A DNA stretch of 53,137 nt, counting the filler, from Sphacelaria rigidula (taxonomy: Eukaryota), in the NCBI GenBank assembly GCA_964200075.2. It is 3 parts of 3 records of this genome, joined end to end, with 100 filler letters (N's around TTAATTAATTAA, not from the genome) between each part and the next. Parts side by side here need not be neighbours in the genome. Positions count along the whole stretch, not along the records: positions 1 to 17,650 come from CAXNAA020001021.1; positions 17,751 to 35,395 come from CAXNAA020001022.1; 1 more part is not named here. One strand, written 5' to 3'. Positions 861-35,495 of this stretch are shown here, one piece after another. The notes beneath the pieces are model-generated. The model had not been told where the DNA came from, did not search any database, and saw only the letters and a program-made list of their open reading frames with translations. Position 1 is the stretch's first letter. Every line of letters begins with the position of its first letter. The translations under genes were made by a program, and so were the position numbers.

Positions 861-2193
861 CTTCACTCCGTCCGTACCACCCCGACAACACCAACTTGGG
901 GATTGTGTCCCGGGCACGACCTGTTCATTTTCTCAATATGTCGACTCCAGCACTTCCGAGTGCTGAAGAAGCCTAGTACGCCAGAAAAAGGAGAGAAAAT
1001 CTCAATGAAAAAGAACAGCCTAGAGTGCATGCGGACTACTATTTCAGTGGGGCGTGTGCCGTAATTATTATTGATGTTGTTGTTGTTGTTGTTGTCTTCA
1101 CATATAAAATCCTTCCGACTTCTGCTCAGTACTCTTTACTGGGCATCTGATGCGGACGCCTTCCGCGGTCACAGGCTAACTACCCCCGATATAGGGTAAA
1201 ATAATGATGATAAAATGAATCGGACCCAGAAACAATTCACACAGATGCGATGCAAAAGAAAAAAGAAACAAAACAAAACAAAAATACTAAGGCAGAAGAA
1301 AAAGGAAGAAAGAAAAAGGACTACTGGTAATGGAAGTCGTTATTCGGTGACTCCTATCTGCACCACCGTGGCCGGCACAGCAGGCACTGTATGTCGTACT
1401 TCCAAATAGGCGTAGAATAAAACATAGGCCCGTGCCGAGGAGACCTTGTCACCCTGTTGTCTGTACATAACATCGAGGCAAGATGTGCATACTTCGGAGG
1501 GGCTGAGGGAAGCAGCGTTCTCTCCCGTCATCATCGTCCGTGCGTCGTTACAGTGTAGGCAACTCGCCCTGTCGTGTCAAGTTCACCGAACCGCTCACGC
1601 TGCCACACACATCAACACAATGCTCTTCTAGCAAGCGTCTCATTAGACGGGCATCTGTACGCTTCGCTTCGACGCCGAAGCCCGCACGATCGGCAGCGTT
1701 GGCTTGTTACACTTGTCGTCCACCGAGCATAATCTAACGAAAACGCTCAGAAATATTGGCTTGTTTAGGCTGGATTTCAGATGTCGAGCACGACTCTACC
1801 GTCTGAATGCGCACGAGTGATGCAATCATGGCATTAACTCTACAAACTCCGGGTAGCTCTACACCACGGCGAATGCTCGTGTTTTGCCGCAAAAAAAATG
1901 TTGATGGCCCCGTTCAGTGCGCGAAAACGTATACGTTGATACCGTCTTCAATGTTGCTAGATAATGCGTATTTATCGATCGCGAGATATTGGGATACGGT
2001 TTTGGGGGCTGAGCCTGCTCGGTAGATTCGAGGACGATTTCTAGCCGTTTTTGAGTGATTGATTTTTTGTTGTCGCACTTTAACTGACCCCCCAGGGATA
2101 CAGTCGTGGTCACGTGATCGACGTACCCTAGACAACACATCACTGAACCACTCGGTAAAGAAAGAAGAAACAGAAAGAGGTGCTAACTAAGAC

Positions 2194-2404
2194 TGCAATG
2201 CGTGCGAGGACCGCGTGCTTAGAGGACCGCATCGGAATTTGAACATCCCTATGATGGAGGTTAGGGTTGGGGTTTGTGTTGGGGTTAGGGTCGGGGGCGT
2301 GATCCCTGCAGGGACTGGCCTGATGGATTTTGTAAAACGTCAATCCTGAAGTGTTTCGAAGTACGATGTGGTCTCCTGAGCACGCGGTCCTCTCACGCAT
2401 TACG
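2194..2404 (-). mobile_element. MITE family 1 (TGT..ACA, Ginger-like), copy 1
   Basis: About 40-bp TIRs TGCAATGCGTGCGAGGACCGCGTGCT / AGCACGCGGTCCTCTCACGCATTACG. Flanked by AAGAC/AAGAC. Internal GGGTTA-like repeats. Confidence 0.9.
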
Positions 2405-2501
2405 AAGACGGTCGTGTGGGATGAAGACAACACCCGCGGGCCCCGTTGGGAGGATCATGTACGGGAGTTGGCTGTTGGCTCTTTGCTCGTTCACCACGCA
2501 G

Positions 2502-5500
2502 CGATGACAATTCCTTTCGCACTCGCTGTTCGAATGGCGGGCAGGACGGTGAAGACGACAACAAAGCAATTCAAAGCAGCAACCGCAAAAAGAGGAGCAG
2601 CGTTTCCCGAGGGCTACCAACCCCGACTTCGCCACCTGCGACGGTCGCCCAATCGTCCAAACGCCGCTCATCAGAAGCAAATCAACCGAAGAAGAAGAAG
2701 AAGAAGCCGAAGCAAACTCCCACGCAAGATCCCGGCAGCATGAAAACGACCCATCACTCGACACCTCGCAGGCCGGAGACCACTCAATCCAAGAAAAAAA
2801 GATCCTCGAAGTCTACCCCCTTGAAAAGTAAGGGTTCCACGCCCGCCTCTAGAAAGTCGCCCGCCGCTACCACGCATCCTCCTTCCAGTCAGGGTGGCGA
2901 ACAGCAGTCGCTTGGTCACGTGGAGGAGATAGCAGCCGAAGAACCGAATGTGGTGGCGTCACCACCCCCAATGAACGCACACAAGTTCAAGATTATGACC
3001 GGGAAGCAGGCGGTGGCGGCCATTCGAGAAGGCACACGTGAGAGATCTGTACTGCAGAGAGACGCTGTTTGTTCTTCAACGAATGTGCTTGGCCCATTCA
3101 TTTGGGACACCCAGAAAAAAGACAGCTCGGCATCTCTGTTGCTGTGGTTTTAATACACCCGGCGTGCGTTGTACTTTGCAAGGTTCCTGGTTGTTCGTAT
3201 TGCACTAAGTCGATGTATTGAAATGGCGCGTTCATCTCTGTTGAATTTGCAGGTATCTATATCAAGAGTGGAGAGGGTAATGGTGGAGATACGTGGTGGG
3301 ACAGTGGCGTGGTCCAGAAGGTGAGACGTGATGTATCTAGAAGATGATCGCGAGTCTGAGATGCGGTCTATGAATTGCACGAATTACCCCTTGGCGCGAA
3401 AAACACATTTGCGGAGGAGGTCCCGCCATTGTGCGAGAGCTGGCAGCTCGAAATGCGAAACATTCCCAATCGAGGGCATCATGTGTTTCATGAGAGCGGG
3501 GGAATTTCTATTCGCTGAATCGAATTCGATTTAATTACATTTGAGTCATCATTTGCTTGAGGTGGCGAATGCTGAAGAGGACCTGAGAGGTTCAGTGCTT
3601 GTCAGGTCCAGTGCTTGGAATACCTTTGCCGGTGATGCCGAACATCGAAGCGATTGTTAGTTAATACGCTGAGAGCGTGGTGGGCAGACCCATTGGCGTG
3701 CGTGCGAAACAGCCGCCTGAGCAGCCGTAATGGCCGCACTGTGATAAATCCCCCACTTAGCCGGTGATTGGTACAACTGTAGTACCTTTGCGGAACTGCA
3801 CTACTGTAACGGATCCAACTTGATAGCGATTGACCGAACTACGGTGGGTTGCCGTATCTTTGGGGGTTGGACTACAGCGAGATAGATGCCCACCGTTGAA
3901 CTTCTTTTTCGACGCCCAGCAAGCACATACAGTTTTGGGAAAGCGGCAAGTACAGCAATGTACAGCCATATGCAGTTTTTTTTAGGCTTGCCAGATATGT
4001 TTGCACTTGTAGTGTTCATTTCGTTGCCGGACGAATTCCTCAAATGGTTTGCGGATAATTGAAGCGCACGGCCCGTTCCGTTTAACACTTTATTTCTGGT
4101 GGATACCCACAGTTGAGTCCCCGGAATTGCCAGTCGCCCCGGTGGCTCAGTTGTTATCCTCGAAACTTTTCACACCCTGGACAATATATGCTCAAAATAT
4201 CCAATAGACCAGAAGCGTACTGCATAAAGTGTAGGCCTATTGCGGCTAGTGTCGGCCGGCAATAGCCGCAATAGGGCTACACTTTATGCAGTACGCTTCT
4301 GGTCTATTGAATATTTTGACCATATTTTGTCCAGGGTGTGAAAAGGTTCGACGGTTCGGACGTGATTTCGAATCTCGGTGAAGTCACACGATCTTGAATT
4401 TTCCAACAGTGGAGAACGACTATGTCGTAGAGACATAAAAGTTCGACTTGACGGTTGACGAAGGAAAGGGACCGCTGAACCCTTTTCGCGATAAAAATAA
4501 TTAGGCGAGCGCCGCCTGAGGAAGGTGGGGTATTGAAACAAAAGAAAAAAACAAGAAAAGTCCTGAGTTGACCTTCCTCCTGTGTGACCCCGGCTGATGC
4601 GCCCACATATACCGAAAGGTGTAGACTGGTGTCCAGAATAGGTGGGATGGCAACACACACACAACACACAGTGTGGTTACGTGTCCGACAAGGGTGGGGA
4701 TGGTGTAATGCGTGAGAGGACCACGTGCTCAAGAGGCCGCATCATAGTTAAAAAAACCTCAGGATCGACGTTTTGCAAAACCAATCGGGCCAGTCCCTGC
4801 AGAGACTACGCCCCTGATCCTAACCCCAACACTATCCCAACCCTAACCCTAACCATAGGGGTGTTCAAACTCCGATGCGTCCTCTAAGCTCGCGGTCCTC
4901 TCACGCATTACATTGGCATCACAACTTTCGCACTGCAATCAAGAGGCTGTTTTGCGACTTCCATGCAATCAGAGCTTGTGCTGTAGCGATGTGCGGCATT
5001 GGACAGCGCTTCGCCGGCATACACGTACGGACTGTGCAGTATTGTGCCGTGATGTATAATAGTGTTTGGTACCTGCACTAAAAATGCCCTTCTTCATATG
5101 AACTTTCTGCACACACAACTCGCCGCCAAAGGCCTCTGGCATGACCGCAATGCTAGGGGTCAAGCCGTTTCATTATGTGACTGACCGGCCTACAGACTCA
5201 GAACATCCCATGAGAGAGGTAGTAACACCTAGACGAGCCAGGCGTCAACTGGCGGTATTGTTGGCTTTTTCAATATACTATGTAGTAGATCACGCTCACC
5301 AGGTTGAATCGACGGACGAAAAGGTCGCGGCTGCCGTGCAGGATGCTGGGTGCGATGTGAGCCGCACAGTCAGAAGCATCGCAGTGACGTTTTTGTGCAG
5401 TCCCGTGTCTCAGCTATGCAGTAATTCACAATCCTTTGTGGCCGCTGCTCGATCTATTCCTTTCTATGCCATTTCGATGAGATACACTCAACATTGCCCT

Positions 5501-6777
5501 GAAGCCTTGTCCGGGTTTGCATAAACGTGGTTCGGGAAGTGTTGCTCCCCGTATTCCTGCATGTTCTCAAGCTTTTGGCAATATCCCCTCTGCGACACCG
5601 CAGTCCGAAGGATGGCCGCGTGTATACGTCGTCTATGTTTCCCAACGTCGCTAGGTTGTTGGCAACCCGAACAACGTGTGTACAGCGTGACTCGGGTCTT
5701 ATACGGGCGTCATGAGCCTGATCTCGCGTTACGTAACTACTATGAACCGGCCTATAGTAGTGGGCGGTCTAACTATTCACATTGTGGCGTTTTGTGATTT
5801 TTTCCGTAATTGGCGATTGTTTTGGGCTCTTTTGCTTGCCACCGCTTCTCACATGGGGGATCTCAAGATATTTGTATCTGCTCCACATTCCAAGAAAAAA
5901 ATGTCACCTGTACTCAATATTCAGTGACTTATAGGCTGACCGATCATCGGGGGTCCTGTCACGTTTCAGCCCAGATTATTACTCTTCGGTATTTTCGGTC
6001 GATCGAGCCTGTCCCGATCATATTGTTGAAGAAATTTACATTTTCCTTTTTTTGAAATTCTACCTACTCACAGCGTTAAAGCCGAAGAACTTGTCTCACG
6101 GTCAGTAACACCCACCTGATGAACGGGGTACTTAATCGTATCGCTTGATAACACCAACTGATACTGGCTTGTGCAATGTATTTCGAGAATGATTTGTTTA
6201 CTGTACCAGAATATACCTCCGCTAGCAATTTCGATTCTATCGAAGAGTTCTACGCGAGGAAACCCCCCAAACACCCCTGAATTGTTGGCCCGCCGACTAC
6301 TGTATACCTCGGGACGTGCGTTTTACAAATGCACTGAATAAGCCGATTGACGCTGTGCGCACTTTGTTGAACTCGCCTTCAAACTGGGAACGTCGGGAAA
6401 CGTGGATAACTTATACCGACGGAGACCCGTGCCCTGTGAACTTGAATAAATATGCTGATACCAATCTACTGTTGTCCTTTGGTTGGTGCCCGGTGAAGGT
6501 CCACGAGCGCGGCAGACGGTTCGAGGTAGACTGGGAGGGGATCAATAACCGCGGGGAGGAGGTCGAAACGGGCGGCGAGAAGCGCATCGACTTACCAGTG
6601 ACCTACAGCCTCGGGGGCGCGGCTGCTGCAGCAATTCAGAGCGTGCCTCCCGGCACTCAAGAGGCCGCGCTCGTGCGAAAGCAAGTGCTAGCCGACGCTC
6701 GCATCGGGTCGTGGTGCATACAGCACCCGGAAGAACCGTGGGGCATGCTGGACCCGTTCGGTGAAGACTCCATTTGA
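2502..6777 (+). CDS. Spliced gene A: K/S/T-rich low-complexity protein with a C-terminal Tudor/SH3-like domain (paralogue of gene B)
   Basis: Exons 2502-3037 (cag acceptor; donor C|GTGAGA), 3253-3320 (gcag; AAG|GTGAGA) and 6499-6777 (aag acceptor; TGA) join in frame. Product reads ...GKQAVAAIREGT-RIYIKSGEGNGGDTWWDSGVVQK-VHERGRRFEVDWEG...RIGSWCIQHPEEPWGMLD. A phase-compatible first exon 938-975 (MSTPALPSAEEAY, donor GTACGC) is possible but speculative. The domain assignment is inferred from the pattern. Confidence 0.7.
4160..4351. repeat. 192-bp near-perfect palindrome (essentially no loop) in an intron of gene A
   Basis: Arms 4160-4255 and 4256-4351, centred on GTCGG|CCGGC. Includes a 33-bp perfect run; 4 mismatches in the inner 55 bp. 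Confidence 0.95.
4410..4670 (+). repeat. Dispersed repeat, probably a retroposon 3' end, with a CA-rich tail; second copy at 9305-9560
   Basis: Shared blocks CGACTTGA.GG, GCTGAACCC, GGAAGGTGGG, CCTGTGTGACCCCGGCTG.TGCGCCCA, GGTGTAGAC and CCAGAAT. Confidence 0.75.
4704..4912 (+). mobile_element. MITE family 1, copy 2
   Basis: TGTAATGCGTGAGAGGACC...GGTCCTCTCACGCATTACA. Flanks ATGG/TTGG. Internal CCCTAA-like repeats. Confidence 0.9.
5755..6302 (+). mobile_element. Tc1/mariner-type MITE (family 2), copy 1
   Basis: TIRs (C/T)AGTAGT(C/G)GGCGG..AAC.ATTCA at both ends, flanked by TA/TA. Confidence 0.85.
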
Positions 6778-7910
6778 GACGGAGACGGGAGGGAGAGGGG
6801 GCACTTCCCTCGTTCTTCTTCGAGTGGAACAGCCCTAACACGCACGCTCTCCTGGAGGCAGCCCCCCACTGTTTAGAGAGCGGCCAGCTTCCTTGGGTGC
6901 TCGTGTGGCCAGTCGTCCGGTCATGATTGGCATCGACAGATGTGTGTCGTCCTGCCGGACAGAAGGGAAGATCAGGTCCTTGAAAACTAGAGTAGATATC
7001 TGACTTCAAGCACCCTATCGAGAAGTTCTTCGAGCCGAGGTTCACGTAGCTGCTACGGTAGTATCGAATGTTACACGTGGTGATTTCGGGTAAACGAACC
7101 AGGAAGTCTTTGGGAAAGGTTGGTAGACACCGGTGCAGATATGATCTTGTCTGTGTACGTGTGGTTTCCGCCAAGCTGGCGTGTTTCCTGGTACCGAAGG
7201 GTTGCATAACTCGTTCGCCTCTGTCTTGCCTCATCTACATTGCCCTCGGACGTGTCCCAGCATTTGGTACAGAATGTAGCTTGCCCCGTATGACAGAGCC
7301 GCTGTTTTTTCCTGGAGCACCAGGCTGTAAGAAAGTTGTCTATATCTCGGCATGCCATGTGGCAGTAGACTGCAACATGTTTCGTTCCGCAAGCAGCTCG
7401 TCATAGTTCGCACGAGGTCGTTTTTTGCAGCACCGATAAGGAGTAGAGTGACGCAACTTGTCCAAAATTTCCCAATAATCGTTTGTGTACTTGGATACGA
7501 GAGGACTGCTGTGATGAAATTTTGTTTTGAGAGTTGTCGTGGGGGCGGGGGCGGGGGGGGGGACATATGTCGTGCCTCTAGAGTAGCACTGCTTGTTTAG
7601 CTCGTCAATGTTTTGAGTGTCGATATACTCGCTTCATTTTTGTACAAAACTGTTATGTTCAAGACTTTTGTTCCATGTGTATGCTGGGAGCAGGGTTGTG
7701 ATGAACGGAAGGAATGGAACCATGGGTTGGGAAGGTTGATTCCATGTGTAGCTTGGGGAAGATTCAGGTCTAGGCCGGGTGAGAGGGTTGCACGTACACC
7801 GACAGACACAGAGTACACATAGTGTCAATTCTAGATTTTTTGTGGGAAAGCACCCTCAACGGGTTTCAATGGCTGCCGTTCGGAAGTATTATATGGCGAG
7901 TGATGCCGCA

Positions 7911-8185
7911 ATAGCCCGCCCCCCTCCCCCCCCCCCAAACCAGCCCGAAACTGTCACGACGAGGGAAATGGCCATACAGTGCATGATGGATTGTGTCAGA
8001 CTGCATGAAGCGCCTCACAGGGGCGGCATTGGCAAAAACGATCCCAATCGTGCGAGTTCCCAACTGCTCGGTGTGCTCGGTTCTTGTCATTTTGATTCAC
8101 ATGTAGATTTTACCTCCTCAAACCAGCCACTTTCCTGGGGGGGGGGAGGGGGGGGGGTACTCACGTTCCCGGAGAGGGGGGCTAT
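7911..8185 (+). mobile_element. MITE family 3 (ATAGCC..GGCTAT), copy 1
   Basis: Terminal ATAGCC(C)n / (G)nGCTAT. Internal sequence aligns with 32869-33098 (CTGCATGAAGCGCCTCACA and others). Confidence 0.75.
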
Positions 8186-9706
8186 TGTGGTGTCAGTCTG
8201 GATGGCGTGAAAATTCAACACAACGGGGAAGCGTGTACTCCTGTGAGTGGCCGTCTTTGTCGAGAAGTGACATCTTCTTTAGAATACTGGCGAACGCTGC
8301 ACAGTAGGAGCAACGCCCGTACCCGAGTAAAATGTTGTTCGTCCTCACGCGAAGAAATCCCACCCCAATCCCACAGTATACACACGCTGATTGGTTTGAC
8401 CCTAACCTGTTGTCAGCAGTCAGCAGCGTCATCTAGATAACAGCTGGGTACCAGGTGGACATGAGTCACAACTCAGCAAAAAACTCTTGAACACATCAAG
8501 TACTGGTGGGTGTCAAGGCGGAAAAAAAAACAACGGATGCGCAGATTTTGTACCCTTGCATCATGAAGGCACGCAACGAACGCGTACGCACGCCGGTATG
8601 CCCCACTCACTGCGGAGAGCAAATTCCATTGTTGGCCTCTATGCTCTCTCTGTCTCTCCTTCGGCTTCTTATTCTCATGTAGTACACTACGTGAGCTCGT
8701 GGAGCCTTGTACGTTTGCAGTGTCCTCTGGAAGCTGTCAGGGCGTTGGGGTCGGTGGGATTCTCAGGGCTGGTACGCTTATGACGAGGAACTATTATTAT
8801 GAAGATGTGACATCGGTTGGGAAATACTTCGTGAGGGATGTTTCTCTCGCCCCCGTCGGAGTTTTTTGACCCCAAGATCCACGCCCCTCGCAAGTCTTCT
8901 TGTTGGGGGTCGCAACCGCAATTGTATGTGATACTGTACTAGCGTGTTCAGATGCGGCAACAATCATACTGCGAAGCCACGGGTACATGCACTCCAGAGG
9001 GGAAAACAAGGACGCAGATGGACTTCCCGAAGCGATGTCTCCGCAGCACACATTTCAACCCTAACCCAAAGCGCGTTTACAACCATACAGCACGACGCGT
9101 TGTCCACAACAGTACGGAAACTTTAGCTACAGACGGTGTACGCTGTGCCATCTCTGCTTGTGCGATGCTTGCTGCTGTCCAACAGAAACGAAAGGGGAGA
9201 GAAGAATTGTTTCGGGCGCCGATGCACACAACACAATACGCGATCGAAGCGAGATTGAACCAGACAAACATGCGTTTGTGGAAAGCAGTCACGTGCACAA
9301 CAGAGGAGAGCGACTACACTATCGTACTGTATCGTGGATCTGCGTGGGTACACAAAAATCCGACTTGATGGTCGACGAGGGAAAAGGACTGCTGAACCCG
9401 TCCCGAGATAAAAACGGAGGCAAGCCCCGCAGAAGGAAGGTGGGAAATTAAAACAAAACAAAAAACAAAAACTCTTGTGTTAACCCTCTTCCTGTGTGAC
9501 CCCGGCTGGTGCGCCCATACATAATGAACGGTGTAGACCGACGCCCAGAATGATAGGAGGACGAAACTGTCATAAACGTCAGAATCATGGAAAACGATGA
9601 CAGTTGTTGAAATTCAGTTTAATTATGTATCCACGACCGGTAAGTATGATGGCGGAAACTAGTACAGGCAAGCACGTAAGCTGACCAAGGGTATAGAGGG
9701 GAGATC

Positions 9707-9971
9707 ATGAGCGAGCTCAAAGAGATAGAGAAAGAGCTTGCGAGCATAGAAAATCAAATAGTTAAAGTTGAGGCGAATTCGCTCGCAGTCGATAATGCCA
9801 TTGCTGGCCGTGGTACGTACAGGGGCTACTCCGGGGAGGACTGCTTCCTGAAGGATAACTTGAGGGTGGTCCAGCGGGAGATGATGAAGCAACTCAAGCG
9901 AAAAGCGCGCGGCCTGAACTGCCGGAAGCGCCAGCTCCTCACTCGTGCAGCTAGCGTTAGTTCCGCTCCTG
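9707..9971 (+). CDS. Isolated ATG-initiated coiled-coil exon (orphan first exon or gene fragment)
   Basis: MSELKEIEKELASIENQIVKVE...LKRKARGLNCRKRQLL shows heptad-like L/I periodicity and is followed by a good donor G|GTACGT. No downstream partner exon was identified. Confidence 0.45.
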
Positions 9972-10707
9972 GTACGTGTATATTTTTTAGGTGCTAGGGC
10001 GGCTTCAAGGCCCGTAAGCCGTGCTGTGGAACCGGTTGCTTGTAATCGGCGTTTTGATGTGATCGACACTGCGCAGGAGTCAAGACGGGATGGGACCCTC
10101 AACGATTGCCTGTGCTGTGCTGTAACTGTTGTGATCTAAGTGCTGTGCCTTCTAGTGTGGTTAGACTTCATGACACTACGGCAGATCTGCCATTGTGCTG
10201 CTGTGTGAGTCTTGGTGTCTAGGTGTGTAAGACGTGGTTTGTCGGTGACTTACTCTTGACGAGCGGAAGAACCGTCTGTCCACACCACCACACGAAGACG
10301 AAGTGCAAGGGATGCGCAGGTACTATACAGTCAGAGTAGCCGCAAGTCCCCCACTGCAGCGTACGTGTGCGCCCACGAGCGGGAAGCCCACGCTTATACT
10401 TTTCCCGATGTCTGTTCTATGTGGACCTACGCAGTAAAGGTGTGTACCCCCGGACGCTGTGTCCAAACTGTACCCCTAGCCGCGTGTTTTTATTCGGTCA
10501 TGTCCCACGAGATCCCTGTACCTATTCTTTGCCGTGTCAGCTCTGTGTATCTAGTATACTTAATCAGCAGCGATAAGGCCGAACGTTAGCGGAACAGTAA
10601 TCTGTTGTTTGAAGGAAACAAATATGATTGCGGGCTCCAAAACTTGCGTGAAATTTCGCTCAGTATACGCTTCCGACAATCGATTACCTTGTCTCTCACC
10701 CGAACAC

Positions 10708-10910
10708 TGTAATGCGTGGAGGGACGGCATACTTTTTGGACTGCATCGGAGTTTAACACTCCTATGGTTAGGGTTACGGCTAGGGCTGGGGTTAGGGTCA
10801 GGGGCACGGTCCCTGCAGGGACTGGCCCAAGCGATCTTGAAAAACGTCGATCCTTGGGTGTTCAAATGCCGATGCGGTCCAAAAAGTACGCGGTCTTCCC
10901 ACGCATTACA
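10708..10910 (-). mobile_element. MITE family 1, copy 3 (variant TIR subfamily)
   Basis: TGTAATGCGTGG...CCACGCATTACA. Flanks ACAC/ACAT. Same internal core CCCTGCAGGGACTGGCC and GGTTAGGG repeats. Confidence 0.88.
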
Positions 10911-12950
10911 ACATCTCTCTTTTCATGCCGTTATGGCGCGAACATGATCAGGCCGCCGCTGTTCATGCTTAATCTTTTCGCGCATTATGCAAGCATGCCA
11001 CTGTAGCAGAAGAAGCGATCGCCACATACATGCCATGGTGCCGTGGCAAGTAGTGCGCGAAATTGTGGGACCCACCAAGCTCACTCGCTATTTTGCTATG
11101 CTGCGCAACAAATGTGAAATGCACTCCTACCTGTACCTACGTTATACACTTACTTCATGTCGAGTACCAAAGGATATCGCAGGACAGGTGAAAATGAAAA
11201 CAAGGAATACGACGTGTTGAAGCTTTGAACGGCCGGCTGCAATGCATCACATTGAAGTTGATGCGCCATTCTGGGCTACTCGGGCACTAACCCTTGCCCA
11301 TTAAGGCATGTTATATCTTTTGAATTTTGATCAGAAGGGACCAATGCGTTTTTGAGCGTGGGAGCAGAGTCTAGCTTGCCATTTCCGTGGAATCCTGTTG
11401 CTGTTTGCAGCCGGGAGTTGAACCCGCACTCTTTGGAGGAGAACATAAACGATTCTGAGGAGCCTGATAAAATCGCCAATTACGAAGAAATTGCAAAATG
11501 AACAGTTCAGGCGCCCATTACTTCACCACACCCCACGACCCGCGACGTAACACACACATGGCTACTGCTGTGCGTTGACCCTTTGAGATGAACCTGTAGG
11601 TGTGGACGTGGAATAACACGCAGTCTTGTGCTTGGTTGGGGCACACATCAACCACGTGCCCAAATGAAAACAGATCCAAACAGCAAATTCTACGTATCGT
11701 CCTCTGGTGTTCTCATTGGGTCAATCAATGGAGAGGACTGCCCAGGTAGGCATCGCTGCGCTCTACGCTTGTTGATGCCTGGTGGTTTGACCATCGTCAC
11801 CTGTGGTACGCTTACTCTCGAGGTGTATGTCCGATCAAAACAGAGTGTCTATGAAAAAAACATTTCTGGGAGAAGCCCTTTGATCTCTCGTTGGCTTGCC
11901 TGGAAGTCCAGTCCCAACGTCATATTCAAGGGAGGATACCGAACAGTAGTGATGTCCTGACAGTACCTTGTTCCCGTGCGCACCAAAGCCCGGAACTCCG
12001 TGCATGCAAGACATGCTAGGATGACATTTTTTTATAGCAGTGAAACAACACAAAAATTCAACTACCGTACTAGTGCTTTCCATTCGACCACCGGTGTTAA
12101 TCTGTTGTGCCGACTTTTCCGGGTAAACAGGTGTCAACCCTGCTCCGCAGACGGATCTTGGGGGGTTGTCAATACAAGCCTCGGTGGCAGCACCATCCGC
12201 CTCTGCCGACGCGACCCTCGGTTCGCCACGACCGGACGGGTGAGTTTTGCCCTGTTTTCGCGGCTCGTGAAATCAGTATTCGCGAAGGTTTCAAGCCTTG
12301 TGTGAGTTCATTTTGCGCGTAGTGAACGTAAAGCATGTCGCATCTTCGTCAGGGCATCGCTGCGTGAGGTATTCTCTGCATGTTGAGCCCAAGGAATCAG
12401 TAGAGCTCTGCAATCATGGAGTGTTCCTGACAGCTGTACGAATACCACCACCGTTGGCTCATATAGTTGATACAGAAACTGCACTAGTTTAGTTCTGGGG
12501 AAGATGTGTCTGTTGCACGCGCTCGACTCGTGAGGTCTTCGCCAGCGTTCATGAGGTTCCCTCCGTACCCAGTGCTGGGGGCGGCGGGGGGAAAAATGGA
12601 AAATTAAGCCACAATGCAGTATCTGGCAGATTATGAGAACCCCGAACGTCTGCAATCTCTGAACACTGCGCGAGTCATTCGCAGAGCCTCAAACCTAGAA
12701 TAAGGACGACGACTTCGCCCATCGCTGCTGCTCATGCAGTCTAATCCGGCGCTGCTCGCGACATGCGTCCAATCATTAACACCATCCAATGTCGAAGGCA
12801 GCCATCGTTGTGAGGCTTCTGTGTGCACACCTTCCATACTCCTTGGCACCATACTTTCCTGAATAACCTTTCAAACGTGTGGGTACCTGTGTGTATGCTC
12901 CGCATGGATTGCTTGCTTCAACGCACTGTACATGCACCCGGCAAACGCAG

Positions 12951-15900
12951 CAGGCCGTCAGACGTCGCATCAGCAAAGGAAGCGACTAACCCTACCCAGT
13001 CGGGAACGACCGGCTCATCAAATGCGGTAGCGGCTACATCATGTTCAGTACCGGCTGGCACATCAGATGCCGTGGGAGCTGCATCTGATAGGGTGTTTGC
13101 TACATCAGATGCTGTGACGGGCACACCAGGTGCCATATCGGCCAGCGCGTTGGTTGCCGGGATGACTAGAGCAGGTACTGTACATGTTACACCATGTTCC
13201 GCAGTGACTACTACATCAGGTGCCTTATCATCTGCATCGGATGCTCTAATGGGCACATCAGGTCCATTATCGGCTAGATCAAGCGCTACATTGGCCACAT
13301 CAGGTGCCGCATCGGGTGCATCAGGTGCTGTACCGGTTACATCCGATGCCGTATCGGCTACACCAAGTGTTGCAACTAGAAAATCAGGCGTTGGGACGGC
13401 TAGCACATCGAGTGCGGTAACGTTTGGCACATCAGGTGCCGTAATGGCTAGTTCAGGCTCCGTACCTGCTACACCAGGTTCTGTGGTGGCTACCACATCA
13501 CGCGCCGTACCGGCTACGTCAGGTCCTGTAACGGGCACATCAGGTTCCGTATCGACCACGTTTAGTTCTGTAATGGACACACCAGGTGCCGTACCAGTTA
13601 CATCAGGTGGCGTATCGGCGACAGCAAGCAGCGTATCGGCTACATCAGATGTACCGTCTACATCAGGTGCCATGCAGACTACATCACGTACCGTAATGGC
13701 TACATCTGATGGCATACCGGCTACACCAGATGCAGTAACGGGCAAATCAGATGCCATGACGGCTCGAACACCAGGTGCGGTAACGGACATACCAGATTCT
13801 GTACTTACTACCCCAGATGCCGTAGTGGCTACAGCATCAGGTACTGTATCGGCAAAGTCAGGTGCTGCAATGGCGATGTCAGATGCCGTGCCGGCTACAT
13901 CAGATGCCCTATCGGCAAAGTCAGGTGCTACAGTGGCCATGTCAGATGCCGTACCGGCTACATCAGATGCCGTACCGGCTACATCAGGTGCTGCAATGAC
14001 CATATTTGATGCCGTGCCGGCTACATCAGACGCCGTACCAATTACATTAGGTGCCAAGACGGCTACCCCCAGTGCCCTGCTGGCCGCGTCAGGAGCCGTA
14101 CCGACTAAATCAGACGCCGTATCGGCCACATCAGTTGCCCTACCGGCTACATCAGGAGCCGTATTGGCTAGTTCAGGCGCCGTACCGACTAAACCAGATG
14201 CCGTATCGGCCACATCAGTTGCCCTACCGACTACATCAGGAGCCGTATTTGCTAGTTCAGGGGCCGTACCGACTAAATCACATGCCGTATCGGCCACATC
14301 ACGGGCCGTACAGACTACGTCAGATGCCGTATCGGCCACATTAGGGGCCGTACCGACTAAATCAGATGCCGTATCGGCTGCATCAGATGACGTCAGGGCT
14401 GCCGTGGTGCCTACACCAGGCGCCGTATCAGCTACACCATGTGCCATAGCGACTACGCCAGGTGTCGTGCCAGCCCCATCAGGTGCCTTATTGGCTTCAT
14501 CAGGTGCCATGCCTGCCGCATCGAATGTCGTATCGGCTACACCAGGTGCCGTATCGGCCACATCAGATGTCCTAGCGATTAAACCAAGTTCCGCACCAAC
14601 CAACCCAGGTTCCGCACCGACTGCATCAGGTGCCGTAATGGCTACATCTAATGATGTACCGACTGCATCAGATACCGCACAGACTAGATCACATGGCGCA
14701 GTGGCTACATCAGGTGCCGTATCGGCTGCGTCAGAGGTCGTAATGACCAACCCCGCTGCTAACCTTACCGCGACAACAGCTAGCTTTGTAAAAGGAGCCC
14801 CAACAAATCCTGACACGCCGACTACAGGCAACGCTGCGAAAACAGTGACCCATGCAGATTCGACGAATATGTCAACAACGGTCATGGCCAGTACTGACAA
14901 TGCAGGCGATGCGAGATCGCCCACAATCCTGACTGCACCGAATGCATCCGCCAAACCGACCACCACTGCTACCGATACAGCTTCCCCGAACTCCAGCACA
15001 CTAACCGCACATCCAACACCGGCTTCTGACGACGCGAGTGCTATTGTAGCCCCATCCGTAGCCGCCGACGACTCAGAAAACGGAAAGCCAAAACACCCGA
15101 AGCTGGAGGCATCATCCCAAGTGTCACGACCTTCCAAAAATGCTAGCGATGACGAAAGTGCCACAAGGACCAGGAGTGCTACGAGCAAGTCGGCGCCGAA
15201 GGTAAAAACGACGCCAAAGGCGAAGCGGGCAACTACTGCTGCCAGTGCGGAAGGCGATACTACTCCCGGTCCTGCTACTTCTGCTGCGCCGAAAACTCCG
15301 CCGCAATCGTGCTCGGACTCTGGTGGTGGTGCCGGGACCGGGGGAAAGCGGAAGCGCTCTGCCAAGCGCACCTTTAGCCCCACACCGCGGACGTTCAAGA
15401 GCACAAAGCGCGGGAGCCCTGCTGCTGGTCCTCGGCCGGCTAGTTCTGTAGAAGAATACCTGGCGAATACCGAGCGAGGGAAGGAGGTTGTTGCGTCCAT
15501 TAAAAAGGGTACAGGTGCGTTCTGGAACTAGACGTCTGTTGAAATTGTGCATCAGGTGGCCCTATCAATGACACCCTGTAATGCGTGAGAGGACCGCGTG
15601 CTTAGAGGACTGCATCCTAGTCCAAAACACCTCAGGATCGACTTTTTTCAAAACCAATCCGGCCAGTCCCTGCAAGGATCACGCCCCTAACCCCAACCCC
15701 AACCCCAACCGCAACACTAATCCTAACCCTTACCATAGGGGTGTTGAAACTCCGATGTGGTCCTCTACGCACCCGGTCCTCTTACGCATTACAACCCATG
15801 AACTTGTCCAGTGTCAGGCACCTCTCCGGGGTAGGCGTGTAGTTTTCAATCGCGTGGGTAAAACATGAGACGGCATACGCTGTACAGTATAGGCTAGTTT

Positions 15901-18900
15901 TGTTCACATGGTAACTTGTTCGGCACGCCAGTAAATAATGCCTCGGAATATATTTTGTCATACATAAGGTGCCTGTTGTGTCCAAATGCGCTACTGGTGT
16001 GTGGTGAGTCGTGGTGTGTACTTTCGGGTTTGCTGCGGGGTACTGGTAGCACCTGCCGTACGTCCAGCTTCACGAGAAGTACGAATACGACTGAAAATGT
16101 TGATCGAGCATTGGCTCTGCCCTACTCCCGTGCCCCGTACACGATTCGCATCCGCGCAGTTTTCTGGATCAAGTTCAGTGACACCAAGCAAGCTTGGCTG
16201 GAGTGCGGGCTTGTCTGTAAGGTGAAGAATCAGACGAATGCGTCCTCCGTGATGGGATCCTATATATATATATATATTTTCTCTCCGCTCGTTCAATTTT
16301 TCATGGTGGTGATGGTGATAGTGCTGGTGCTGGTGCTGGTGATATCCTTATAGTAGTGGGCGATCCAACTTTTCAGTGGTGTTTTGGGGTTTTCCTCGCG
16401 TACTACTCTCCGATAGAACTCGAAATTGCTAGCGTAGGTATACTTTTGTACAGTAAACAGATTATCCTCGAAATACAGTGCCCAGGTCAGTGTTATTTGG
16501 TGTTATCGGGCGATACGAGAAAAAATACCTTCTTCATCAGGAGGGTGTTATTGACCGTGAAACACAGTTTTTCGGCTCAAACGCTATGAGTAGGCGGAAT
16601 TTCAGAAAAAACTGTACATTTCACAAATATGATCGGGACAAGCTCCATCGACCGAAAATACTGAAGGGTAAGAATCTGGTCTGAAACGTGGCAAGACCCT
16701 CGATGACCGGTCAGCCCGTTGCTCCGTCTCGTAAGGGATGCGTGGTCAATGGTCAAATGACTAAGGCAAGCAACAAATGAGTACGTAAGCCACCCAATAT
16801 TGAATACATATGTTTTTTTTTTTTTCTTGGAATGTAGTGCGGATACAAGTATGTCAAGATCCTCAATGTGATGAGCGGTGGCAAACGAAAAGAGCCAAAG
16901 GAAATCGGCAATTACGGAAACATCACGAAAAGCCACAAAACGAACAGTTGGACTGGCGACTTCTGTATCTCGATCGTGACACTGCCAGCTGTTTGATCAT
17001 CGGTTGAATATGTGTCCTACAGTAAGAAAGGGGCTGACGCTCTGCTGCAGTGTTCATGCGTTGCTCCAAAGTGTATTTTGACGGCTGCTACCATTTTTTT
17101 CCCTGTCGTAGCCTGTTGCTACTTCTTTGCGTACTGTGCTCAGAGAGAGTTCATGTTCACCGAGGAGGGGGAAATCTACCGTCTCTGTGTACAGAACTCA
17201 CAACACACATGTGAGCTCTGCGCCTCCCTCTTCTTGACCATTAGACGGCGAACCCCCCTCAGATGAATTGAGATTGCCCCATTTGGTGTACTAATGATCA
17301 TGCATACCATAGTCATAAGACCATTGACCTCGCATCCGCCGGACCAGGCTCGCTTGCCGCATTTGGGGTTCATAACTGCTGCTTTCCCACTACACAAAAC
17401 GCCCTTTCCATCAACATGTGTGGTATACAACGCTCGCGTGTTTGATCCAGAAGCATCTCACACGAGCTCGACTGTACCATCACTTCATCAACCCCTTCCC
17501 ACGAAACTGATTCATTCCTGGTTCCCCAAGCATTCTCGTAGGTACCGTCTACATCCTCTTGGGGGGGGGGGGGAAGGTGTGTGTGTGTGTGTGTGTGTGG
17601 GTGGGGGGGGGGGGGTGGGTGCGTGTGTGGGGGCGGGTGTGGGTGTGTGTNNNNNNNNNNNNNNNNNNNNNNNNNNNNNNNNNNNNNNNNNNNNTTAATT
17701 AATTAANNNNNNNNNNNNNNNNNNNNNNNNNNNNNNNNNNNNNNNNNNNNGGTCCGGCGAAAACCCGGCGTGCTCCATCCCGGCTTTGTAGGGATGCGAG
17801 GTCAATGGTCATATGACTATAATAAGGCGCAGGTGTCTACGCAATCTTGAATACCTAGACAGAGCAGATAGTACCGTTTACGCAAAGCTGGTACGGTTGA
17901 TGACGACAGCAACTTTTTTATTTGTCCTACAGAGCAGCGTCCGCACAATACCGTAGCACCTGAAATACCGAGCAGATTCGCGAGACACCAACCATCGTAT
18001 TGGCAGCAGGGCGAGCCCCTAGAACTATTGCGCACATCGGACAGCTCATGAGCTACTGCAGTATTTCTTCATGCTAGTGTACTGATCCGGATCATGAGCT
18101 ATCTCATTTGGCCCCCTTTGCCATATTTGCTCCATACAGCGTTAGACGTCGATCACGCGGAGTAGCGCAAAGATACCGCTTCGGCTTCTCGGACCCGCTG
18201 TCACGTATTTTGTGTTCTTCGACGACGGGTCTGAGAGTACTCCTCGATTGGTATTTTTGGTAGCTCATGAGCTGTCCGGCGCGAACTATTGCGCGAGGGT
18301 GGTGGATATATGTGCGTGTCGCATGTCCCTCTGCACACTATGTGACTGTACCCGCTCCTTTTCGGTTTCCTCTCCACCTCACAACAGCGAACCTTGCTGA
18401 CGGCAAGGAATTCCCAGCTCCCGAAACAACACCCATCCCTTACTCGGGTTCACAACTCGCCACATAGGCCCCCAAAACGCGCTGTTCCCGGGGACAAGAT
18501 GGTAACAGCATGAGTGGGTTCTTATCACCACAGCTTCATGGTTGTGGAACAATCATCCTTTGACCGCGGGTACGTTTACGCCATTTTTTCCCAAGGTTGT
18601 ATGTGTGTCTTCCCCGACTCCTCCGCCCCCCCCCCAAAACAAAAACATCTCTTCTTACGCCTCACCAGAACGAGCAAAAAGAGTCGGTTATCCTCCACAG
18701 GTTCGATCCTTAAGCTCATGCATGCCAATATCAAAATCGGTCAGTGTACCTCGTGCTCCTTAAGTCCCCAGCTGCGTGACGGTGCCGTTCATTTCCAATT
18801 TCAAAGCACTTTTCTCACCGCATCGCCAAATCCCAGCTACGTAACGGTGTCGCTCATTTTCGACTTTAAGGCGCTTTTTTTCACCGCATCTCCAGCCTAG

Positions 18901-21669
18901 TCACCAATCGAAAAAACAGGAAACATGCCAGAAGTGAACTATCACCTGGTTTTAGTGTATCATCACACTTGCCATTTTCCGGCACTTCTACGTGTCATGA
19001 GGGGAAAAAAAGTCTTGTGTGATGACAGCCGTTCCTTTCTGTCATATTCCGTATGGACTACGACGATGTGGACTGTACAAGAATTTGGCCAGCACAACGC
19101 AAGTACAGCACAGTAGGGTACGGTATAGTACGATGAAGTAAGTACACAAGAGTAGGGCGCAGCGCTTGACCATTTCTCTGCCGATACTTCACATCCTGGC
19201 CTACGATAGAATGCTACCTATGCGAGGTTCTTGCTCTAGTCGCCCCCCCTTCCCTCTCTCGTCTCGAAATGGATGCGTAGTCAATGGTCAAACGATAAAG
19301 GCGAGCAAAAAATCAGTACCTCGCCCCTCCCCTGCTTCCTCTTCCCCAAGGTTTTGACGTTCCACTTTCTCGTGAAGAACGGCAGCCACACCACCGAGGG
19401 CTGTGGCGTTGACGCCTTTGTCTGATCGATATCTTCGGATAATGGATACCTGCCGGGTGTGCAGCGTTCGTTTCCCCAGAAAATGTAAAGGATCGCGGAG
19501 CGCTGAGAGATAGTGCTCGGTTGCCCACAGCCCACTGGGTGACAGGATTGCGTGTTGATGTTCTGATGCGCCGTTTTTCTTTCGCGCTGCAATTCAGGTT
19601 CAAAGTGAAGCTTGGCTGCGAGGATGACTTCGAGAAAGTTTGGAGGTGCGTCGATCGATAGACTACTGCTGGCATGGCATACCTCGAAGACGGCTGGGGT
19701 GGAGTTGAGAGCTCGAATCCCCGCTTTTGTCCTCAGGAGTATGTGATGTCCGTCGTTGGAATCATGAGGGGATGAGCCTCAAAGAAACTTTGACGGAAGT
19801 CGACGGGGGTTTGGGAGTGTTGATTCAATTCGTGATGAGACAAATGCCAAGCATGTTGCGGAGGGCCAGATAGGTTAATCCCTTGAGACGGCGGGCTTGT
19901 CCTCAGAAGGGGGGGGGGGGAGGGTTGAAAGTATGACGGAAAACGATGATTGATGATATCAATGATGCCTGATTTAATTCACCCGTCCTTGTTTCGTCAA
20001 ACAATACAACTACTGTACAGCACTGGAGTTGGTGAGCAACAAACTGCGCAAACTGACTCCGGTGGTACGACCACCCTCTCGTTACCGTCACAAATTTACG
20101 CAAAGCGTGCTCCCGCGGATTGAAGCGGTTCACTTGTTCCAAAAAATGTCCTGCAAAGTTGGCTGTAGCATCGGACACGCGGGCGTTTCGCCGAAGGAGG
20201 CACGTTATCATTTTTTATCTACCCAAACCAGCACCTCACACACAAATTAAGCGCACCTGTTGCCGACAAAACTGCGGTCTAGAAAAAACTTCCGTCAGTA
20301 CAATACGCTCAGACTGTTCTGACCCACGTTCAGGTGTGAACCTGTTGTGTGTAGAGTGCATGCGTCGTTAAACCGGAGAAGCATAAACAGGAGGCGAGTA
20401 ATGGGCGTTTCTTGAACCTCCAACACCAAGATCTATGTGCTGTTGGATATTTACGGAACGCTCATCACTCCCCTCCTTTCATCGGGTCACTCAGACTCCA
20501 AATAATTATTTTATCACCTAGGACCCCAAAATTTCGGTTATCGGAATCCAAACTTGTATGGCGTGTGGTAGCTGTCAATACTTACCAGCAGGTGGGGGAA
20601 TTCAACCATACTTTGAAGAATTGGTGTGGATACGAGTATTTTAGTTTTCCGGATCATGATCCTCAAGGAAAGGCTCCAACCCCAACTTTGAAAATCGGCT
20701 GTTGGTAGATCTCATGTTGGTGTTGCGTGGGACTCTATACTGTCACTGTCCGGTCGTCCACACCCAAGCAGGGAGAGAGAAAGCAAGCTACAAGAATTTT
20801 CCGGGTTCGAGCAGTTCATGCTGCTCAAGGTTGACCACGGAGACAACGGCAAAGACGAAGAGGGAGGCGGGGCTGCTGCCAAGATCGGACATACCGAATT
20901 CATCTCCCACACTATATGGAGCCACAAGCTTGACTTCGACGATTGGAAGAAAAGGTGCGTGTTCGGGAGTCGCCGTTCTCATCAAGCACGCATCGAGAAA
21001 TCACGCGCAAGATTTCCCCCTCCGACTTCGATTAATTATCTGCAGAGTCGGGTCCGATGCAACACACAGGTGTCAAGTAGACAACAGATGAAAATGTCAC
21101 ATTTCACGAAACTGGAACGGGGTGGCACGTCGTTGAGTCCCGCGAACGACGCACGCCAAGGTAGCCCGTGGAGATGCTATCCTCTATCCTGGAACCCCCT
21201 ATCCACACGATCGCGCACGCCCTATGATGTGTCTTGGCGCGATCTCACCTTGGCCGGCGGAGAAATCGCGTACGATTAAAGGCATTTATAGCGTAATTTA
21301 ATCTCGCGGGTGCTGCATAATGATGCGTGAGTACGGTCGAGTCTCACAACTCAAACCCCCGTGTGTATCTCGGTGCCCCCCGTCGAGCCTCATAACTTCG
21401 AGTCCTCCCTTGTGTCTACATTTTCCCTCTCGTCCTGCCGACTCTGCCTTATACCCGTAACTCTTCTCCACGCACCCTACCGCTTGCGCTGCGAGGGCAG
21501 TCAAGCGTTCAAGAGCAGTCACGTTCAGAGCAAGATCGGCGATTTCGTGTTGGAGAGACCTCAACCTGGCATGTACGATGCGGTGATAATAGAGCCGGTG
21601 CCTCCAGAGCACAAGGGCGGTCTCTGGGACTTCGAGAACGAACCTTCGTACTTCGACGGCGACTTATGA
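12951..21669 (+). CDS. Spliced gene B: about 970-aa protein with Ala/Thr/Ser heptad repeats and a C-terminal Tudor/SH3-like domain (paralogue of gene A); start exon not identified
   Basis: Exons 12951-15514 (cag; ACA G|GTGCGT), 16160-16221 (gcag; AAG|GTGAAG), 20830-20954 (or from 20815; AG|GTGCGT) and 21501-21669 (gcag; TGA) join in frame. Product reads ...GKEVVASIKKGT-VFWIKFSDTKQAWLECGLVCK-VDHGD...KIGDFVLERPQPGMYD. The 902-aa ORF 12823-15531 is the large exon plus read-through into introns. Confidence 0.7.
13030..14740 (+). repeat. Coding 21-bp tandem repeat (consensus about ACATCAGGTGCCGTATCGGCT; T-S-G/D-A-V-S/P-A), with higher-order 84-bp units near 14090-14390
   Basis: Repeated ACATCAGGTGCC/ACATCAGATGCC at about 21-nt spacing. 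The 28-aa unit SGAVPTKSDAVSATSVALPATSGAVLAS recurs with variations. Confidence 0.95.
15577..15793 (+). mobile_element. MITE family 1, copy 4
   Basis: TGTAATGCGTGAGAGGACCG...CGGTCCTCTTACGCATTACA with a perfect 4-bp TSD ACCC/ACCC. Confidence 0.92.
16351..16965 (-). mobile_element. Tc1/mariner-type MITE (family 2), copy 2, inverted, with a nested LINE 3' fragment
   Basis: Reverse complement aligns along the length of 5755-6302. TA on both flanks. About 64 bp extra at 16720-16783. Confidence 0.85.
16720..16783 (+). mobile_element. Short 3'-end copy of the LINE at 51340
   Basis: GCTCCGTCTCGTAAGGGATGCGTGGTCAATGGTCAAATGACTAAGGCAA matches the reverse complement of 51340-51388. Confidence 0.8.
17305..17560 (-). 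mobile_element. 3' fragment of a related LINE subfamily (GCEVNG terminus); an oppositely oriented copy lies at 17751-17825
   Basis: GGATGCGAGGTCAATGGTC(T/A)TATGACTAT on - at about 17309-17338 and on + at about 17792-17820. A related TTATGAACCC block is also present at about 52200. Confidence 0.6.
17651..17750. other. Assembly gap/linker
   Basis: 44 N + TTAATTAATTAA + 44 N. Confidence 0.98.
19257..19318 (+). mobile_element. Short 3'-end copy of the same LINE
   Basis: TCTCGAAATGGATGCGTAGTCAATGGTCAAACGATAAAGGCGAGC (SRNGCVVNGQTIKAS). Confidence 0.7.
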
Positions 21670-35395: not shown

Positions 35396-35495
35396 NNNNN
35401 NNNNNNNNNNNNNNNNNNNNNNNNNNNNNNNNNNNNNNNTTAATTAATTAANNNNNNNNNNNNNNNNNNNNNNNNNNNNNNNNNNNNNNNNNNNN
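35396..35495. other. Assembly gap/linker
   Basis: 44 N + TTAATTAATTAA + 44 N. Confidence 0.98.

Follow-up and report, generated by a model that had tools for sequence, protein, structure and literature searches.

Background

Domains of the Royal family (Tudor, Agenet, chromo-barrel and PWWP-like modules), whose aromatic cage reads methyl-Lys or methyl-Arg on histones or ribonucleoprotein (RNP) proteins, are the described systems closest to the two genes considered here. Complex multicellularity arose independently in brown algae, and much of the brown-alga proteome is labelled 'expressed unknown'; to our knowledge, very few chromatin or RNP adaptor proteins have been characterised in this lineage. 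The DNA that we analyzed is a stretch of 53,137 bases from Sphacelaria rigidula (the window), and the genes of interest, which we call gene A and gene B, both lie on its first contig. An original prediction had presented them as a hidden pair of tandem paralogues defining a Tudor/SH3-like family. We find that contig 1 carries two adjacent, transcribed genes on the same strand, which we read as old paralogues sharing a C-terminal domain that is found so far only in brown algae and is probably a small barrel; we give this reading a probability of roughly 0.6. Gene A would be the short form of the family, with a basic disordered arm resembling a nuclear localization signal (NLS), and gene B the long form, with an arm of about 960 aa (amino acids) that includes heptad repeats.

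Paralogy of genes A and B

Contig 1 contains one A-type and one B-type gene on the same strand, 1.2 kb apart. Compared directly, the two genes share a match of 36 amino acids (aa) over the first shared intron, with a Smith-Waterman score of 61 against 30.4 +/- 5.2 for shuffled sequences (1 of 2000 shuffles reached 61), a pairwise BLASTP expectation value (E) of 6e-5 and 39% identity. This direct likeness fails a correction for the whole window, and exon-by-exon tblastn gives E values of 2-4.

The public model P0001, a Sphacelaria rigidula 'unnamed protein product', is 100% identical to gene A over its last exon and uses both gene A junctions. Orthologues with 68-78% identity are present in Scytosiphon promiscuus, Ectocarpus fasciculatus and Pylaiella littoralis, so that the A type comprises four named proteins from four genera, and the conserved portion of the gene A protein is its last ~135 aa. 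For gene A the A-type profile gives 284 bits, and the full-length domain and both shared introns are present in gene A. When 1.84 billion representatives were searched with A3, a profile built on the core of the A type, eight A-type matches below 1e-30 came back together with P0015, a 1578-aa protein of Ectocarpus fasciculatus, at E 1.9e-10. P0015 aligns to A3 positions 13-136 at its very C-terminus and obtains 57 bits against the A-type hidden Markov model (HMM).

The tail of P0015 is common to five further Ectocarpus records (P0037-P0041), including the E. siliculosus 'expressed unknown protein' P0038, which makes six B-type proteins in all. It consists of a long low-complexity arm with a basic patch, then SVEEYLANTKKGTEAVASITEGT plus VFWIKFSDTKEVWVECAVVTK, which match gene B of the window, and finally a plainly A-like last exon (…KPFEVTW…KRITL…IGSWCIVKPDQPWGQLDPF). 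When the window is searched by tblastn with this tail, gene B is matched at 15349-15525 (E 9.6e-10) and at 16159-16224 (E 1.1e-7), the micro-exon in the latter being 72.7% identical. Within a single species, BLASTP matches the A-type protein P0003 to the B-type protein P0015 at E 6e-17 over 129 aa with 32% identity, and the two types are therefore true paralogues. On these sequence comparisons the paralogy of genes A and B is real, and to this extent the predicted pair stands.

The Ectocarpus B-type proteins (P0015, P0037-P0041) resemble gene B in their long low-complexity arm and basic patch, and in the segment SVEEYLANT..G.E.VASI..GT followed by the micro-exon VFWIKFSDT..., whereas they differ from the gene B of the window in being complete, with an A-like last exon. 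Their arms range from 1087 to 1832 aa in length and their repeat content differs. Two introns are shared by the A and B types at identical alignment columns, one in phase 1 after '..GT' and one in phase 0 after the final K of the micro-exon, in agreement with the equivalent phase-1 donors and phase-0 micro-exon ends that had been proposed. Genomic open reading frame (ORF) fragments of other origin are interrupted at these positions as well. In the Logan genomic ORF P0042, intron sequence comes right after '…IKEGT'; the genomic ORF fragments P0016, P0017 and P0020-P0024 hold the micro-exon between non-coding flanks, and in the fragments P0009-P0011 and P0036 the last exon begins just past an in-frame CAG.

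No third copy of the family was found in the window by tblastn. Outside brown algae, the search of 1.84 billion representatives gave only bacterial repeat proteins (P0018, P0025-P0030 and P0032-P0034; InlB B-repeat, PKD and DUF4082-like), whose likeness is confined to the glycine-rich SGGDTW motif and which we set aside as unrelated. As judged from the sequences searched, the C-terminal domain of ~130 aa occurs so far only in brown algae (Sphacelaria, Scytosiphon, Ectocarpus and Pylaiella), which bears out the suggestion that the family is lineage-specific; it is probably a variation on the small barrel. The genes can hardly be called hidden, both being annotated publicly already as unnamed or unknown proteins. 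Judged by title and abstract opening, none of the Ectocarpus Tudor and chromatin papers listed describes the A/B family, which is weak evidence that it is unpublished, and within that material the shared domain and the A/B paralogy as such appear not to have been named before.

Expression and gene structure

We aligned Logan contigs of runs X1-X3 (RNA-like, from one study) and X5 (DNA) to positions 1750-17640. X1-X3 are not on record as RNA and were taken as RNA because they contain GT..AG joints that the DNA run X5 lacks. Five such joints occur on contig 1, each in three of three RNA-like runs and in none of the single DNA run: 3037/3253 and 3320/6499 in gene A, and 9971/12131, 12239/12954 and 15514/16160 in gene B. 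At 3037/3253, 3320/6499 and 15514/16160 the X5 contigs are continuous through the sites. Genes A and B are expressed and spliced. These last three joints are among the five junctions of the original prediction, whose motifs and micro-exons are also where it had placed them; 9971/12131 and 12239/12954 are additional and connect upstream exons of gene B.

The exons of gene A are on the plus strand. The large exon spans 2545..3037, the contig matches of X1-X3 starting exactly at 2545, after an AG at 2543-4. It encodes a basic, S/K/P-rich disordered arm that includes KKKKKKPK (isoelectric point (pI) 10.5; S 17%, K 13%, P 13%), then a helix ending GKQAVAAIREGT, with a phase-1 donor directly after base 3037. 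All three RNA contigs place the start of this exon at 2545 instead of 2502, and the claim that both large exons begin in phase 2 falls with it. Further upstream, each RNA contig holds at least 61-93 nt more of gene A mRNA, in an unplaced exon. The micro-exon at 3253..3320, RIYIKSGEGNGGDTWWDSGVVQK, which would form strands 1-2 of the barrel, has GT..AG joints on both sides and ends in phase 0. It is followed by the last coding exon at 6499..6777, with the predicted strands 3-5, two helices, the IGSWCI...PWGxLDPF tail and the stop codon, and by a 3' untranslated region of at least 6778..8469, defined by an unbroken X2 contig (6495-8469). The frame is open across the joined exons for 280 codons from 2545.

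Gene B is likewise on the plus strand. Its exon 1 (9676..9971) contains the ATG at 9707, the product starting MSELKEIEKEL, and is connected in RNA contigs to exon 2 (12131..12239), whose joints on both sides occur in X1-X3. The large exon (12954..15514) encodes the repeat arm, the basic patch KRKRSAKR and a helix ending GKEVVASIKKGT, and closes with a phase-1 donor; the micro-exon VFWIKFSDTKQAWLECGLVCK (16160..16221) follows and ends in phase 0. From the ATG at 9707 the joined exons form one uninterrupted frame of 999 codons, which reaches the last base of the micro-exon at 16221. The basic tracts of gene A and gene B are NLS-like, as had been proposed.

The A/S/T/V/P-rich arm that the long form adds is about 780 aa in length. 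At 13493-14569 it is made of degenerate 21-bp (7-aa) tandem units, or, viewed in another way, of ~21 copies of a degenerate 42-bp unit that contains two 7-aa units (roughly TSGAVPA/TSDAVSA). This arm is probably either a spacer that evolves fast or a disordered region of multivalent character. X1 shows many single-base differences from the window at 13072-15369 (19 of them in the 12953-14124 piece) where X2 and X3 show none, as would be seen if polymorphism between strains or alleles were concentrated in this arm. On the minus strand opposite the arm, an ORF at 12918-15527 is open for 869 codons; it probably results from the composition of the repeats and does not represent another gene.

Contig 1 stops 1.4 kb past the gene B micro-exon. 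The two longest gene B RNA contigs reach 1803-1804 nt past 15511, only 65-67 nt of which are on contig 1, so that about 1.74 kb of gene B mRNA downstream of the micro-exon falls outside the contig. Gene B is truncated by the contig end after the micro-exon, and its true last exon is therefore expected elsewhere in the assembly; by analogy with the Ectocarpus proteins it should be A-like (KP[FY]EVxW...KRIxL...IGSWCI..PWGxLxPF).

Fold of the shared domain

The predicted layout of the domain is an amphipathic helix, a small beta-barrel of five strands, two helices, an IGSWCI strand and an acidic PWGxLDPF tail. AlphaFold2 (AF2), run on an alignment of 11 A and B sequences, gives a helix, strands at residues 22-28, 35-45, 51-56 and 73-75, two helices, a short IGSWCI strand and a disordered tail. 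The top Foldseek rows for this second AF2 model are the RBBP1 chromo-barrel, the AGDP3 Agenet domain, the SGF29 Tudor domain and Tip60, and the fold searches return almost solely small barrels, all of them weak. The Atlas feature neighbours of both the A and the B types include the Spin/Ssty, Agenet and Tudor_5 clusters, at 0.76-0.83. We favour an SH3-like small barrel as the probable fold suggested by these models.

In mechanistic terms, the barrel could be a module of SH3-like, Royal-family-like type that is made for binding; taken into the nucleus by the basic arm, it would dock there on a chromatin or RNP ligand. The IGSWCI strand would probably pack on the barrel and the acidic PWGxLDPF tail might act as a partner-binding motif or as an intramolecular cap.

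A number of results weigh against the two-paralogue, small-barrel reading. All Pfam matches for the A type are under their cut-offs, and the PDB profile searches give only low-complexity rows at E about 1, or none. A first AF2 run, on an alignment of four sequences, was poor, with a predicted local distance difference test (pLDDT) of 43.1, and the run on 11 sequences is only middling (pLDDT 63.7; predicted template modelling score (pTM) 0.60). No Foldseek match is significant, the best having E 0.23, and the Atlas scores are under the 0.9 bar. With regard to gene B, an A-like last exon (KP[FY]EVxW...IGSWCI...PWGxLxPF) is absent across the window by tblastn, and the window's gene B alone obtains only 5.2 bits against the A-type HMM, so that its membership of the family depends on the Ectocarpus bridge. 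Finally, we only infer that the protein is nuclear, that it binds a ligand and what its tail does.

The same searches bear on the possibility that the domain truly belongs to the Royal family, as a Tudor, Agenet, chromo-barrel or PWWP-like module whose aromatic cage would read methyl-Lys or methyl-Arg on histones or RNP proteins. In alignment A4, strands 1-3 carry conserved aromatics (Y/F/W in RIYIK/VFWIK, W in TWWD/EVWVE, F/Y and W in FEVxW), the second W of TWWD being V in the B type; these aromatics may equally form the core of the barrel. Spindlin, SAWADEE, Tip60, RDM15, SGF29 and Agenet are among the best weak matches, the Atlas neighbours agree with them, and the arms are basic and NLS-like, but Sm, KOW, TraI and Pelota barrels score equally with the Royal-family rows and the structural scores are all under the noise bar. 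The hmmscan of P0001-P0004, with E up to 10, gave no Royal-family model; the best Pfam rows in the barrel region, SH3-B_UBE2O (E 0.092) and DUF4819 (E 0.047-0.055), do not reach their cut-offs, and Pfam returned no family for P0015 and P0038 and none for the single exons of genes A and B. A PWWP-like reading, suggested by the resemblance of VFWIKF...TWWD to the PWWP signature of strands 1-2, was rejected, the PWWP rows appearing in Foldseek only at E 0.45-0.62 with a root-mean-square deviation of 11-12 A. We regard a methyl-reading Royal-family module as unlikely. The Tudor/SH3-like label accordingly divides: AF2 and Foldseek point weakly to a small barrel, while the Tudor part finds no Royal-family match in sequence or profile.

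The distribution of the conserved positions raises a further alternative, in which the fold is new or not SH3-like, the barrel model is an artefact of a shallow alignment, and the function is mainly in the IGSWCI..PWGxLDPF linear motif. Conservation between the A and B types is highest in strand 3 (EVxW), in KRIxL and above all in the C-terminal IGSWCI…PWGxLxPF, and the 20 invariant columns include 11 tail residues (G114, S115, W116, C117, I118, P124, W125, G126, L128, P130 and F131), so that conservation peaks in the tail and not in the barrel. The middling overall pLDDT, its drop to under 50 for residues 121-136 and the lack of a significant fold match are also as a new fold would have them. 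On the other hand, both AF2 runs give strands at the same three core segments, the pTM is 0.60, and the best structural rows, instead of mixing folds at random, are nearly all small barrels. A new fold is to our mind doubtful, and we keep to the small barrel, with the proviso, from the conservation pattern, that the C-terminal IGSWCI…PWGxLxPF segment likely matters as much as the barrel itself.

The contig join and the exons on contig 2

The window consists of three separate contigs, in pieces of descending size (17650, 17645 and 17642 bases). An artificial linker (44 N, TTAATTAATTAA and 44 N; no strand) splits contig 1 from contig 2 at 17651-17750, and a second one of the same make-up separates contig 2 from contig 3 at 35396-35495. 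The contigs bearing P0001 and P0006 are on record as 17650 and 17645 bases long, the lengths of pieces 1 and 2. Since the pieces are sorted by size and TTAATTAATTAA holds stops in all six frames, the window has been strung together from separate contigs, and pieces that are side by side in it therefore need not adjoin in the genome. It follows that a gene model crossing the TTAATTAATTAA linker is unsafe and that a feature spanning a join is an artefact. The stretch 2502-21669, to which the original prediction applied, straddles the first join. A natural copy of TTAATTAATTAA, without Ns, is present at 301-312.

In that prediction gene B continued past 16221 into two more exons, 20830-20954 and 21501-21669, with both genes encoding Tudor/Agenet readers of methylated residues. 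The RNA contig match past the 15514/16160 joint spans 16157-16223, which fits a next exon starting with GT and a non-G base; an exon at 20830 suits this, an Ectocarpus-type Val-first exon suits it equally, and as any Val-first exon fits, the models are not told apart. A short likeness of IGDFVLERPQP to IGSWCIQHPEEP and the frequency of Royal-family rows among the weak fold matches also speak for the predicted model. The proposed junction 16221/20830, however, runs across the artificial join at 17651-17750, and with a six-frame-stop linker between size-sorted contigs the adjacency of contigs 1 and 2 is a concatenation artefact. The public model P0006 begins upstream of 20830 and continues through it, and its Laminaria digitata orthologue P0007 shows coding similarity upstream to about 20770 (RERESxLxxFSGFEQFMLLK); with P0006 and P0007 coding across it, 20830 is no exon start. 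The Ectocarpus B-type proteins finish in an A-like exon and not in the contig-2 exons. The likeness claimed between the C-termini RIGSWCIQHPEEPWGMLD and KIGDFVLERPQPGMYD obtains hhalign probabilities of 0.3% and 0.2% over 12-13 columns and is best read as chance. Against the A-type HMM, P0006 and P0007 score -0.1 and -2.0 bits, and the contig-2 exons appended to gene B give no extra aligned domain. We consider this model extremely improbable and close to refuted; about half of the gene B model, plus the likeness built on it, is a concatenation artefact.

The two exons in question, both on the plus strand, are at 20770..20954, its extent given by the coding conservation of Laminaria P0007, and at 21501..21669, the last exon of P0006, ending ...GGLWDFENEPSYFDGDL. 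Judged by similarity, the exons at 20830-21669 are unrelated to the A/B family and come from an ABM/IsdG-like gene. The junction 20954/21501 agrees with P0006 and P0007 and can be kept, as part of this other gene and not of gene B. Residues 8-70 of P0007 match positions 29-76 of Pfam PF03992 (ABM) at E 2.1e-4 with 21.9 bits, the cut-off being 23.1, and P0006 matches the same family at E 0.083. Six of the seven matches listed in the PDB by phmmer with P0007 are ABM or heme-degrading monooxygenase chains (E 0.01-0.79), the ABM-type matches being, in order, TT1380 (E 0.01), heme-degrading monooxygenase, YhgC and HmoB. P0007 resembles the ABM and IsdG-HmoB proteins in the signature ...W..(E/D)F..W..S.AFK..H, which aligns with TT1380 and heme-degrading monooxygenase, whereas the contig-2 protein, unlike them, continues at its C-terminus into a conserved extension, PVPPEH.GGLWDFENEPSYFDGD. 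In none of the six upstream ORFs scanned did we find the N-terminal half of the ABM domain. The public model P0006 is probably truncated at its 5' end, with coding conservation extending above its annotated start.

The only tblastn matches in the window to such a last exon are weak ones at 21199-21276 on the plus strand (...TPYDVSWR..., E 0.25-0.6). This site falls within the ABM-like gene's intron, and the ORF ending there (...CYPLS...TPYDVSWRDLTLAGGEIAYD*) is faintly like VYPRSVKPFEVTWRPFDSGG, with which the last exon of the B type starts. As a candidate relic last exon it was taken as chance on its E values, though it is oddly placed given the original model.

The final kilobase of contig 1 (16590-17650) is highly repeated, with a summed depth of up to 7e5 in the DNA run, and the contig terminates in G-rich and (GT)n runs; this repeated end probably explains the assembly break inside the last intron of gene B. 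A dispersed repeat is present in the introns and flanks of genes A and B (about 2140-2400, 4640-4890, 10560-10920 and 15572-15870). Its translation reads ...RERTAC..D.I....TSG.TF.K......PCRDHAPDPNPNPN..., and it carries telomere-like CCCTAA/CCCCAA runs. In the DNA run the bins of this repeat have a summed depth of up to about 7e5, against about 60-75 in bins of unique sequence, and loose contig ends at 2253 go on as (GTTAGG)n.

Comparison with known systems

The main lesson of this locus is a technical one, in that crossing a join of unlinked contigs produced a false Tudor-ABM chimera. If the reader-type barrel proves true, a conserved and expressed lineage family of two members would be a reasonable functional target in Ectocarpus. 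It is tempting to go further and to see in the family a private brown-alga reader-type barrel, distantly akin to the Royal family, capped by IGSWCI/PWGxLDPF and deployed in two ancient paralogues, one short, basic and nuclear and the other giant with a fast-turnover repeat arm, that is, a lineage-specific chromatin/RNP adaptor system with no plant or animal counterpart; we offer this as a speculative idea that is unlikely to be right.

Set beside the Royal family, the A/B domain differs in having no significant match to it in sequence, profile or structure, in occurring so far only in brown algae, and, in the A type, in a glycine-rich loop between strands 1 and 2 (SGEGNGGD). We know of no counterpart of the invariant C-terminal strand with its PWGxLDPF tail. 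The likenesses are those of general design: like Royal-family and other SH3-like barrels, the domain has five short predicted strands in ~55 aa and conserved aromatics on strands 1-3; it is joined to basic disordered arms, as Royal-family barrels are, and these families lead the weak matches; and, as in capped Tudor and chromo-barrel domains, helices are predicted both before and after the barrel.

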